Part shown: positions 60,559 through 63,921 of the stretch, piece after piece
Layout of the letters: each line of letters starts with the position of its first letter
Position numbering within the stretch: position 1 is the stretch's first letter
Source: Shigella phage vB_SboM_Phaginator
DNA: 64,000 nt
Sequence record: OL615012
Direction: 5' to 3' (one strand)
Translations under genes and position numbers: made by a program
The notes under the pieces: generated by a model
What the model was told of the DNA's origin: nothing
Database searches by the model: none
The model's input: the letters and a program-made list of their open reading frames with translations, nothing else

Positions 60559-60888
60559 TCAATTAGAAAATAAATTTATCCAAGATTGTTCTTTAATTAA
60601 AAATGGCTCAGAATCATATGCCATTAAACTCTGTGTGATTAGTCCTTTAAAAGGCCCATCAATAAATTCCATGGTAAAATATGGAATTTTATTCATTAAC
60701 CGTGCATTAGGAGCCGTACACAAAACTCTGCATCCTTTGAATACGCCTTTTTGTAATTTGTATTGCTTGGGATAAAATTCGCTCAAAATGTTATTATTTG
60801 CTAAAATTTCAAAATGATTCACCAATTTATTTTTAATAGTTTTTGGCGAAAAATAAAGATATTCGAAAAGCTGAGTGTCTGTCATCAT
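60559..60888 (-). CDS. hypothetical protein (~109 aa)
   Basis: ORF-track ORF trimmed to an internal Met to give ATGA coupling. Confidence 0.5.
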
Positions 60889-61427
60889 TGCATTCCGATT
60901 ATGAAAAACTGTGGACGAGTAATACCACCAATGCAGCATTTACTATTGCAACAGTGGTGCACAGTTTCAATATGAATATCGTAAATTTTATCCATATCAG
61001 GAGATTTAACAGGCTCATCGATTATATACAAAATCCGCGAAAGCGATAAACCTCTGAACTTGCTACCTCTATTACCAACAAAACTACGGACAGAAACAGT
61101 AAATAAACGGAATCGAATATCATCATTAGAATAGCGTGAAAATTCTTTTTTAATGTGGCCCGCAGAAATTTTAGCGTAAGCTGAAGTATTAGAAAGAACA
61201 ATAACTGTTCCACCGTCATACAACCAATTAGCGGCAAAATTAGTTACTGCAGTTGATTTACCGGATTGACGTCCACCATCTAGTCGAAGTGTGCAGTATT
61301 CTTTAAATAAATGTGGCGAATCAGGTACATAAAATCCACTATTACAAATTTCTTCTACTCTAGCATCAGAATGGTGTGTAAAAGCATTCATCAGGGATAG
61401 ATAAGGACCAGTTAAAAATGTTCTCAT
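60885..61427 (-). CDS. small P-loop NTPase with C-terminal Cys cluster (~180 aa)
   Basis: Trimmed to MRTFLTGPYL... after AGAGAGAATAAA; Walker A GGRQSGKST, Walker B ILYIIDEP, tail HHCCNSKCC. Confidence 0.55.
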   Translation of the reverse strand: MRTFLTGPYLSLMNAFTHHSDARVEEICNSGFYVPDSPHLFKEYCTLRLDGGRQSGKSTAVTNFAANWLYDGGTVIVLSNTSAYAKISAGHIKKEFSRYSNDDIRFRLFTVSVRSFVGNRGSKFRGLSLSRILYIIDEPVKSPDMDKIYDIHIETVHHCCNSKCCIGGITRPQFFIIGMQ

Positions 61428-61593
61428 TTTATTCTCTCTAAATTTGGGCCATTCCATGGCGCGTGAATTGTCCATTTCTGTATTTACCCATTACCGCACT
61501 TGGGCTCGACCTTATTACAGGTTGGCTGGAATCCCTCACAGAATCATGAGGTCCAGCTTGTTCCCATTTTATTTGAATGTAAATAGATCTGAG

Positions 61594-62172
61594 TTAGGAA
61601 TTACGGGCTGCATTAGCAACGGCGTAAGCGTACTGGACATTAGCGTCTTTAAACGTACCTTTAGAGGTATCTATTTCTGCCTTAAAGCCGCCTTTAGCCA
61701 TAACATCGGCAAATTCTTTACGGAAAGCCATTGCATCAAGACCTTTCCATGATGATTTATGCTTGGCAAATTCAAGACCAGCGTAGTTGACAGCCTTAGC
61801 TAATTTATTATCAATAACCCATTTACCGGCTTTAGGCACAAACTTCGGGCCTTTTTGTTTAGAGAACAGTTTTAAATTCCAGCGACGAAGGTCACTGTCG
61901 GCTTTAACAAAAGCTGCGTCTAAGTTACTAGCAACAACATCTTCAATATGAGCAAATTTAAGTCCGTCAACTTCAATATTTAGATCGTTACGCCAGCGAA
62001 GTCCTTCCCAAGCGAAGGCTTTAAAGTCGGAAGCCTTTGTAGCTAAGTACCGTTCAATAGGAGCTGTTTTAGGGTCAAAGCCGTTTCCCGATCGGTAGGT
62101 CCACTCATCTTTATTAATGCCTTTGGCCTTTACTATAGAAGCTTCGGCAATAAATTCTTGATAGGTTTTCAT
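61594..62172 (-). CDS. ipIII: internal protein, IPIII-like (capsid targeting sequence)
   Basis: 192-aa basic ORF beginning MKTYQEFIAEA, the T4 internal-protein targeting sequence; T4 IPIII ~194 aa. Confidence 0.75.
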   Translation of the reverse strand: MKTYQEFIAEASIVKAKGINKDEWTYRSGNGFDPKTAPIERYLATKASDFKAFAWEGLRWRNDLNIEVDGLKFAHIEDVVASNLDAAFVKADSDLRRWNLKLFSKQKGPKFVPKAGKWVIDNKLAKAVNYAGLEFAKHKSSWKGLDAMAFRKEFADVMAKGGFKAEIDTSKGTFKDANVQYAYAVANAARNS

Positions 62173-62200
62173 GTGTTTCCTTGTTTGTTTTGATAGAGTA

Positions 62201-62230
62201 ATTATACCATATTAATACTTAAGCGTAAAC
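62201..62230 (-). promoter_or_regulatory. T4-type early promoter
   Basis: Minus strand GTTTAC-18 nt-TGGTATAAT upstream of the IPIII-like gene. Confidence 0.7.
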
Positions 62231-62233
62231 CGT

Positions 62234-62494
62234 TTAAGCTTTACCGCCAGAAATAATTCCGAAGTTGTTAAAATCATATCCAATATCGTCAACATCTACT
62301 TTAGGACTTGCTACAGCATAAGCAATTTCACTACGTTTTGCACAGGTGTTGATTTCTTTACCATCGCCACCTAAGAAAGAATACCCATTACGTTTTAATG
62401 AGCCAAAGTCTTCCGCATCACCAATGAAAGCTTTAACTTTAAATTTAGAACCTTTGGCATCTGCTTCAACGATAAATTCTTGATACATTTTCAT
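62234..62494 (-). CDS. internal protein, IPII-like (capsid targeting sequence)
   Basis: 86-aa ORF beginning MKMYQEFIVEA. Confidence 0.65.
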   Translation of the reverse strand: MKMYQEFIVEADAKGSKFKVKAFIGDAEDFGSLKRNGYSFLGGDGKEINTCAKRSEIAYAVASPKVDVDDIGYDFNNFGIISGGKA

Positions 62495-62500
62495 TTTTCC

Positions 62501-62604
62501 TTAGTAAATTGATTTACCAAAGTATTTGTACCAAGTCGGACGTTGATCAATTTTTTCATCTAAGCGTGCTTGATTTATCGCAATGGACGCTTCGGACGGG
62601 TCAT
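62501..62604 (-). pseudogene. denV: denV (endonuclease V) deletion remnant
   Basis: ATG after GGAGG encodes MTRPKRPLR then stop; a second frame reads [30 protein letters not shown], matching the T4 endonuclease V C-terminus as recalled. Confidence 0.6.
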
Positions 62605-62631
62605 AATTTCCTCCAAGTAGTTGATGAATGT

Positions 62632-62661
62632 ATAGTATCAAAACCCTTGGAGGAAGTAAAC
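62632..62661 (-). promoter_or_regulatory. T4-type early promoter upstream of the denV remnant
   Basis: Minus strand GTTTAC-18 nt-TACTAT, then GGAGG and the remnant ATG. Confidence 0.55.
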
Positions 62662-62662
62662 A

Positions 62663-63465
<803 letters not shown>

Positions 63466-63466
<1 letters not shown>

Positions 63467-63921
63467 TAAAAGAGGCTGTTCATTATTCGGTAAAGTGAAG
63501 GACCCATCACATATTGCCACTGAGTACGAGGAATAAGAGCAAAAGCATCCATCTCTGGAATCATAACACCATCTTTATTTTCAAAATAAGACTCGCAATG
63601 GCAATTTCTAAACATCTCATGCTCTACTGGAATCGTATAATAAAACAGCTGTAAGTCTTTATTACTAGAATATTTAAATACACCTAGGTCTTCTAGAAGG
63701 TCTGGATTATAATTGCTAAAACCGGTCTCTTCTAAGCATTCTCTTCGTGCTGCATCTAGTGCGCTCAAATCAGAATTTTCTACACGGCCTTTTGGAATAT
63801 CCCAGCGATGTGCCATCATTCCAGGCTTACGAGAACCAGTAACCCGTCCCATGAATAAATCTTTATCTTCTGTCATAAAGATAATACCAGCTGATAATGT
63901 TTTCATTTTAATTTCCTGCAT
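63466..63921 (-). CDS. nudE: Nudix hydrolase NudE
   Basis: 151-aa ORF with Nudix box RECLEETGF; adjacent to e as in T4. Confidence 0.85.

Follow-up and report, generated by a model that had tools for sequence, protein, structure and literature searches.

A denV pseudogene in a T4-like Shigella phage, probably formed by a 310-bp deletion between short direct repeats

Endonuclease V of bacteriophage T4 (DenV; pyrimidine dimer DNA glycosylase/AP lyase; PF03013; PDB 2END, 1VAS) is known from structures in which catalysis needs the N-terminal Thr2 amine in the folded enzyme, Glu23, and Arg22/Arg26. Phage T2 is reportedly v-minus by nature, a state said to have been recognized by the classical genetics of Streisinger in 1956 and Harm in 1963. 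Deletions between short direct repeats have long been familiar from the rII genetics of T4, and the endpoints of such spontaneous rII deletions were reportedly described by Pribnow et al. in 1981 and by Singer and Westlye in 1988. The internal head proteins IPI, IPII and IPIII of T4 and the hyperplastic ip locus provide a further point of comparison.

The locus described here lies in a 64,000-nucleotide stretch of Shigella phage vB_SboM_Phaginator (record OL615012), and "the window" refers throughout to this whole stretch of analysed DNA. A remnant of the endonuclease V gene, denV, resembles its T4 counterpart in the MTR start context and in its last 30 residues, which are identical to T4 residues 108-137 at 26/30 positions; it differs in that residues 4-106 are deleted, the frame is broken and the Pfam match is absent, so that the remnant is a pseudogene. 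Like T2, the window phage is a T-even phage from the wild and, by its sequence, has no functional denV. As in the spontaneous rII deletions of T4, a short direct repeat flanks the deleted segment of the parental allele and one copy is left at the junction; unlike those deletions, the denV case is found in wild isolates, is fixed in a lineage and was not laboratory-selected, and its mechanism is one that we infer. The genes that flank the remnant share with the T4 internal proteins a capsid-targeting leader and assignment to 'internal head protein' PHROGs, whereas ip93 and ip86 have no similarity to IPII past the leader, and the gene order differs from that of the T4 ip locus. We put at roughly 0.9 the probability that the feature is a denV pseudogene that arose from an ancestral allele of the intact type by a 310-bp deletion between direct repeats. 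No published description of this denV allele was found in searches of the literature on denV combined with T2, T-even, pseudogene or deletion.

The window represents one third of a T4-like (Tevenvirinae) genome, from rIIA to e, and its final 24 kb match many Tequatrovirus records, the top match having 96.5% identity. The order on the minus strand is nudE, e, ip93, the denV remnant, ip86, IPIII and a vs.8-like gene (Table 1). An 851-bp query over the locus matched 274 phage records, some of which were colinear with it while others were interrupted by about 311 additional bases annotated as endonuclease V. The flanks are syntenic with those of intact alleles, with 97-99% identity. Two further features of the gene cluster differ from T4. 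The e stop codon and the ip93 ATG overlap as ATGA (62941-62944, minus strand), whereas in T4 a gap of about 87 nt is followed by ipIII; and vs.8, a single 219-aa gene in T4, is represented in the window by a 33-aa ORF (61438-61539, GTG start) and a 196/179-aa ORF (60885-61475), both on the minus strand, a split that is also seen in the G4498 annotation (gp124 + gp123).

Table 1. Features of the denV region, in window coordinates
Feature	Position	Strand	Evidence or remark
nudE	63466-63921	minus	
Lysozyme gene e	62941-63429	minus	
ip93, 93-aa internal head protein gene, 5' of the denV cassette	62663-62944	minus	phrog_3499 'internal head protein', E = 1.2e-46; same annotation in relatives
Early promoter of the denV cassette, T4-type	62632..62661	minus	GTTTAC 62661-62656, TACTAT 62637-62632; predicted
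Shine-Dalgarno sequence GGAGG of denV, kept	62610..62614	minus	same in intact and deleted alleles
Probable deletion junction, single remaining copy of the 13-bp direct repeat AATTATGACCCGT, spanning the denV start codon	62596..62608	minus	two copies 310 bp apart in intact alleles
9-codon frameshifted ORF MTRPKRPLR*, denV codons 1-3 and then out of frame	62575..62604	minus	310 mod 3 = 1
denV 3' remnant, codons ~106-137 and stop, without a start codon in its own frame	62501..62595	minus	EndoV residues 108-137 match; tblastn; phrog_1183
ip86, 86-aa internal head protein gene	62234-62494	minus	phrog_2667 'internal head protein', E = 2.3e-18
Early-type promoter of ipIII, predicted	62229-62201	minus	TTTACG, N17, TG-TATAAT; 10/12 with TG extension
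ipIII orthologue, 192 aa	61594..62172	minus	94% identical to T4 IPIII
vs.8-like gene	60885-61475	minus	

The minus strand from 62604 to 62501 comprises 104 nt of the denV (T4 endonuclease V) gene. A first-pass annotation, made from the letters alone, had described a GGAGG-ATG opening the frame MTRPKRPLR-stop on this strand, and both elements are present (GGAGG at 62614-62610; ATG at 62604-62602), followed by the codons ATG ACC CGT CCG AAG CGT CCA TTG CGA TAA with the stop at 62577-62575. Its statement that T4 endonuclease V begins with MTR is borne out by the T4 DenV sequence. It had also taken a second frame of 30 residues, which ends with the stop at 62503-62501, for the C-terminus of the enzyme, and the protein comparison agrees with this: among the solved T4 endonuclease V chains the frame matched residues 108-137 with E = 1.2e-12, and the next match, an unrelated one, had E = 0.6. 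A tblastn search of the 64 kb window with T4 DenV detected 62629..62504 (E = 4.5e-16), and in PHROGs the 46-aa ORF of the C-terminal frame aligned with phrog_1183, the endonuclease V profile, over positions 102-138 (E = 8e-8). The homology of the remaining sequence thus points firmly to descent of 62604..62501 from denV. The annotation's picture of a denV remnant was upheld: the first three codons and about 32 at the end are kept, the interior has gone and the reading frame is interrupted. Its estimate of about 100 missing internal codons compares with a measured 310 nt (103 codons and one further nucleotide). The annotation had named an intact denV elsewhere as evidence against its own reading. 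None was found in the 64 kb window, where tblastn with T4 DenV gave no other match better than E = 3; in G4498, a carrier of the same junction, the remnant is the sole DenV-like sequence of the complete genome.

When the intact G2133 allele (flanks 98.3% identical) and T4 were aligned to the window, which the annotation had proposed as a way of defining the endpoints, one clean gap of exactly 310 columns was seen, and it ends in a 13-bp direct repeat. In G2133, copy 1 of the repeat reads AATTATGACCCGT and lies over the start codon, at -4 to +9, and copy 2, 310 bp downstream in the codons N-Y-V-P-S, reads AATTATGTCCCGT. Removing one G2133 copy and the interval in silico gives the window sequence except for 2 substitutions. 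In the intact allele of JK42 both copies read AATTATGACCCGT, agreeing at 13/13 positions at a distance of 310 bp; no direct repeat in the gene is longer than this 13-mer, and such a length was reached in 0.2% of shuffles. By our summary count of the 8 intact alleles compared, the repeat is 12/13 in the seven besides JK42: G2133, AlbertHofmann and Pu-Krd-SF4 have a T in copy 2, SA79RD, KAW3E185 and AV111 have ACTCGT in copy 1, and in MM02 the two copies differ more from each other than in the other intact alleles. Alignment revealed no AATTATGACCCGT-type repeat in T4 denV. The repeat is therefore present at both parental endpoints, as represented by JK42, and exactly one copy is present in the window (62608-62596); the 310-bp gap together with the repeat at its endpoints carries the hallmarks of a short-direct-repeat deletion.

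The order of events would be as follows. An ancestral intact allele, of the type now found in JK42, G2133 and SA79RD, would have had AATTATGACCCGT twice, at a distance of 310 bp, with copy 1 over the start codon and copy 2 (N-Y-D/V-P-S) in codons ~102-106. As suggested by the endpoints, one copy and the interval would then have been eliminated by slippage during replication or by illegitimate recombination, the classical route to T4 deletions of this kind. The deletion is out of frame (310 = 3 x 103 + 1), and the two copies lie in different reading frames, so that the retained Shine-Dalgarno sequence and ATG would direct translation of MTRPKRPLR* only; the C-terminal 32 codons have no start codon.

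It is extremely improbable that the gap is an artefact of assembly or sequencing. Repeats can collapse in assemblies, a general concern that has nothing specific to the denV gap, but a repeat of 13 bp is far too short for such a collapse. The identical junction is present in 12 independently sequenced phages, in addition to which there is one variant, and several carriers have additional private mutations in the remnant. The artefact explanation was dropped, as 13 independent genomes carry the deletion, and we regard the deletion between the repeat copies as the source of the gap.

What was lost was examined at the level of domains and catalytic residues. In the intact DenV of G2133, the Pfam family Pyr_excise (PF03013) scored 50 bits against a cut-off of 23 and covered residues 1-87, and hence the deleted part takes in the whole domain; the 46-aa remnant ORF matched no Pfam family and did not reach the Pyr_excise gathering score. 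The missing codons 4-106 include Glu23 and the surrounding basic residues, and the frame that follows MTR stops at codon 10. The remnant accordingly does not provide the catalytic set of the T4 enzyme, namely the Thr2 amine in its context, Glu23, and Arg22/Arg26. To judge from the sequence, a functional endonuclease V cannot be made from this locus. With the nucleophilic N-terminal context, Glu23 and the entire Pyr_excise domain gone, no pyrimidine-dimer glycosylase activity is expected, and the phage is predicted to behave as a natural v-minus, UV-sensitive phage.

One could envisage that the locus still yields a functional DenV, truncated or recoded, either through a -1 frameshift that leads from the short ORF to the C-terminal frame or, say, from a non-canonical start. 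That frame is open from 62641 to 62501, includes an aromatic WYKYF segment and is annotated by some pipelines as a 46-aa 'endonuclease'. We consider this very improbable, since the TTG that opens the frame lies inside the -10 region of the promoter and has no Shine-Dalgarno sequence, no ATG, GTG or TTG occurs in the frame 3' of the junction, and no slippery site precedes the stop of the short upstream ORF (uORF). Moreover, residues 4-106 with Glu23 and the entire Pfam domain are missing, and the remnants of FL12 and FL23 carry an extra 1-nt deletion in the C-terminal frame. A truncated or recoded DenV was dropped from consideration on the absence of a start codon, a slippery site and the catalytic residues, which leaves the pseudogene as our reading of the locus. 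In public records the out-of-frame denV stub appears as a 46-49-aa CDS labelled 'endonuclease' or 'hypothetical protein', and the RefSeq entry of G4498 leaves the stub unannotated.

The early promoter that the annotation had placed at 62632..62661 was confirmed as to its elements, GTTTAC and TACTAT being at the positions described and homologous to the sequence upstream of T4 denV. The window sequence GTTTAC(N14)ttgaTActaT (62661-62632) has the features of a T4 early promoter, as far as prediction goes, and agrees with the consensus that the SA79RD record gives, GTTTAC(N14)gtggTAttaT; the stretch GTTTAC...TGATACTATA...ATCAACTAC...GGAG is homologous to the T4 denV upstream sequence, in which the spacing is N13. 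In a strict generic sigma-70 scan the denV promoter scored 8/12 and was not called, and the assignment was kept on grounds of the T4 consensus and homology only. Transcription would start near 62625. Since the homology holds though the upstream gene differs (ipII in T4, ip93 here), the promoter is part of a promoter-denV cassette whose place within the variable ip locus changes with the lineage. The order in T4 (62500-68000) is e-ipIII-ipII-P-denV-vs.8, compared with e-ip93-P-denV-ip86-ipIII-vs.8 in the window, and the promoter travels with denV. The T4 denV Shine-Dalgarno sequence is RegB-resistant, and the RegB/S1 3' consensus is GGAGRAYARAA (PMC1702504). The kept Shine-Dalgarno region of the window (62604-62614, minus strand) has GGAG followed by GAAATTA, which agrees with that consensus at 4/7 positions.

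The statement that the promoter and Shine-Dalgarno sequence are retained can be extended to all nine carriers compared, in which these elements and the ATG are unchanged; in Shinka, the first base after the ATG is T, and the second codon is TCC instead of ACC. The further claim that they now serve as a long 5' leader for the internal-protein gene needs qualifying: the leader is a first cistron that has been shortened, and the arrangement is not a new one, as intact relatives already have a promoter-denV-ip86 unit. In those relatives ip86 would be the second cistron behind denV, with the same promoter for both genes, and in the deleted allele the retained early promoter would give rise to a leader of about 130 nt with the 9-codon ORF, followed by ip86. 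The stop of the 9-codon ORF is separated by 80 nt from the ip86 ATG. A single predicted fold of the leader (about 156 nt, -30.1 kcal/mol) would place the ip86 start in a partly paired region. Two late promoters, TATAAATA, are predicted at 63463 and 63450, 5' of e, with predicted read-through to the ip genes. Because a promoter also lies directly 5' of ipIII, where it is of a strong early type, the ip genes have at least three predicted promoter inputs.

The downstream gene, ip86, had been called IPII-like. It does encode an internal head protein with a capsid-targeting leader (MKMYQEFIVE, followed by A, with a predicted gp21 cleavage motif, L/I-x-E), but it is not an orthologue of IPII, since BLASTP aligned it with T4 IPII over residues 1-19 only (E = 0.002), and these residues are also the full extent of any resemblance to T4 IPII or IPIII. 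In ip93, a capsid-targeting leader with a cleavage motif before S is predicted, as in T4-type internal head proteins. Among the starts of the flanking genes is MKTYQEFIAE. ip86 begins 9 nt past the denV stop, and its Shine-Dalgarno sequence, AAGGA, overlaps that stop. In intact relatives ip86 follows denV by ~6-15 nt, depending on which of two ATGs the annotator chose.

These features bear on the question of whether the stub has been kept by selection as a regulatory leader, in which the promoter and the 9-codon uORF would tune early ip86 expression and the deletion would have been advantageous. The promoter hexamers, Shine-Dalgarno sequence and ATG are unchanged in 9/9 carriers and the downstream coding remnant has several changes; in the intact allele, moreover, the ip86 Shine-Dalgarno sequence overlaps the denV stop, and hence the deletion uncouples the two genes. 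Nevertheless, we regard selection for such a leader as unlikely. Zero changes in 62 nt do not differ significantly from about 4 in 100 nt, ip86 already has the same promoter 5' of it in the intact relatives, and the late promoters upstream of e are predicted to give read-through to the ip genes as well. The repeat dictates the endpoints, and promoter retention needs no selection; the positions of the repeat copies alone suffice to explain why the promoter, Shine-Dalgarno sequence and ATG were retained.

The distribution of the deleted allele was determined with a 46-nt junction probe that was designed without any 28-mer seed in intact alleles. The probe matched 14 records representing 12 phages, all with 100% identity and from several laboratories and countries (G4498, G8, BF15, F27, 235Ecol030PP, JM10, JM17, FL18, FL12, FL23, FL44 and B1.1). 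Shinka has the same 310-bp deletion with AATTATGTCCCGT at the junction, giving MSRPKRPLR*, and the deletion is thus present in at least 13 other sequenced phages. The origins of the carriers include Germany, Poland and Denmark, and the phages are filed under Tequatrovirus and Mosigvirus. The junction was not found in metagenome contigs, and a scan of IMG/VR detected it in one contig (169,650 nt). Because the e-gene haplotypes differ widely among carriers, the sequences lead us to conclude that the deleted allele has moved by recombination, has arisen more than once, or both. The e-ip93-promoter-denV-ip86 module (62150-63000) is at least 97% identical between phages filed under Tequatrovirus and Mosigvirus, an identity that indicates what would be a recent exchange of the cassette between the genera.

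The remnants have changed further. Counted from the junction, derived changes are G>A at +27 (Ser to Asn) and C>A at +54 (Ala to Asp), both of which are carried by the window remnant, and a 1-nt deletion at +44 is found in the FL12 and FL23 remnants; none of the three was present in any of the 8 intact alleles compared. With 3-4 changes in about 100 nt in nine carriers, these remnants are consistent with decay after inactivation. The deleted allele would thus be old enough to have acquired further mutations, and would have spread by recombination into phages of two genera.

Two junction variants are known, AATTATGACCCGT in the window and the 12 phages and AATTATGTCCCGT in Shinka, and the A/T difference between them is the one that separates copy 1 from copy 2 in parents of the G2133 type. 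This raises the possibility that the repeat pair is a recurrent deletion hot spot and that the allele arose more than once, instead of arising once and then spreading by recombination. A crossover to the right of the A/T mismatch in such parents would yield the first variant and one to its left the second, the Shinka remnant is free of any derived change seen in other carriers, and the carriers have very different e-gene haplotypes and fall in two genera. The A/T difference fits two events, but it would also fit a single event with a later point change, or with a later heteroduplex patch that came from an intact allele and ended at the border of heterology, which gives the same picture. Furthermore, the left flank of Shinka is identical to that of G4498, T-even phages recombine freely so that spread over different backgrounds is expected anyway, and the junction is absent from metagenome contigs and present in one contig only in IMG/VR. 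Recurrent deletion is therefore a tentative proposal that we think less probable than its opposite. A more elaborate scheme, in which the 13-bp repeat acts as a recurrent off-switch, denV is lost repeatedly in UV-free habitats (gut, manure, sewage), the junction variants are independent events and the stub is kept since the promoter and uORF set early ip86 expression, is more doubtful by far, and we judge it slightly less likely even than the selected leader considered above.

T2 had been invoked as a parallel on account of its v-minus state, and the comparison holds for that state but not for the lesion. Searches of T2 AP018813 by tblastn and word-7 blastn between e and vs.7 found no denV remnant, only chance matches, and the window comes from a phage other than T2 (96.5% identity in its best match). 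In AP018813 only the downstream flank is kept, directly after a gene for a 157-aa internal protein. The two sequences lead us to the view that T2 and the lineage of the window lost denV independently and in different ways. The T2 record has two other peculiarities in this region (61757-62989): vs.8 is in fragments, of which only a 57-aa piece is annotated, and the 157-aa protein, which has a capsid-targeting leader, is mislabelled 'valyl tRNA synthetase modifier'.

The denV stub is a clearly defined pseudogene that adds a further case to phenomena already known, an ordinary gene loss that will not surprise the specialist. The 'endonuclease' label on the 46-49-aa ORF in public records is wrong. 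For phage-therapy stocks, carriers of the deletion would be predicted to show roughly the classical two-fold higher UV sensitivity. The locus offers a clean natural example of a probable microhomology deletion that would have been carried over genus boundaries by recombination, and a precise molecular lesion, distinct from that of T2, for what we infer to be a natural v-minus state in wild T4-like phages. Endonuclease V has been repeatedly dispensable in enteric coliphages.
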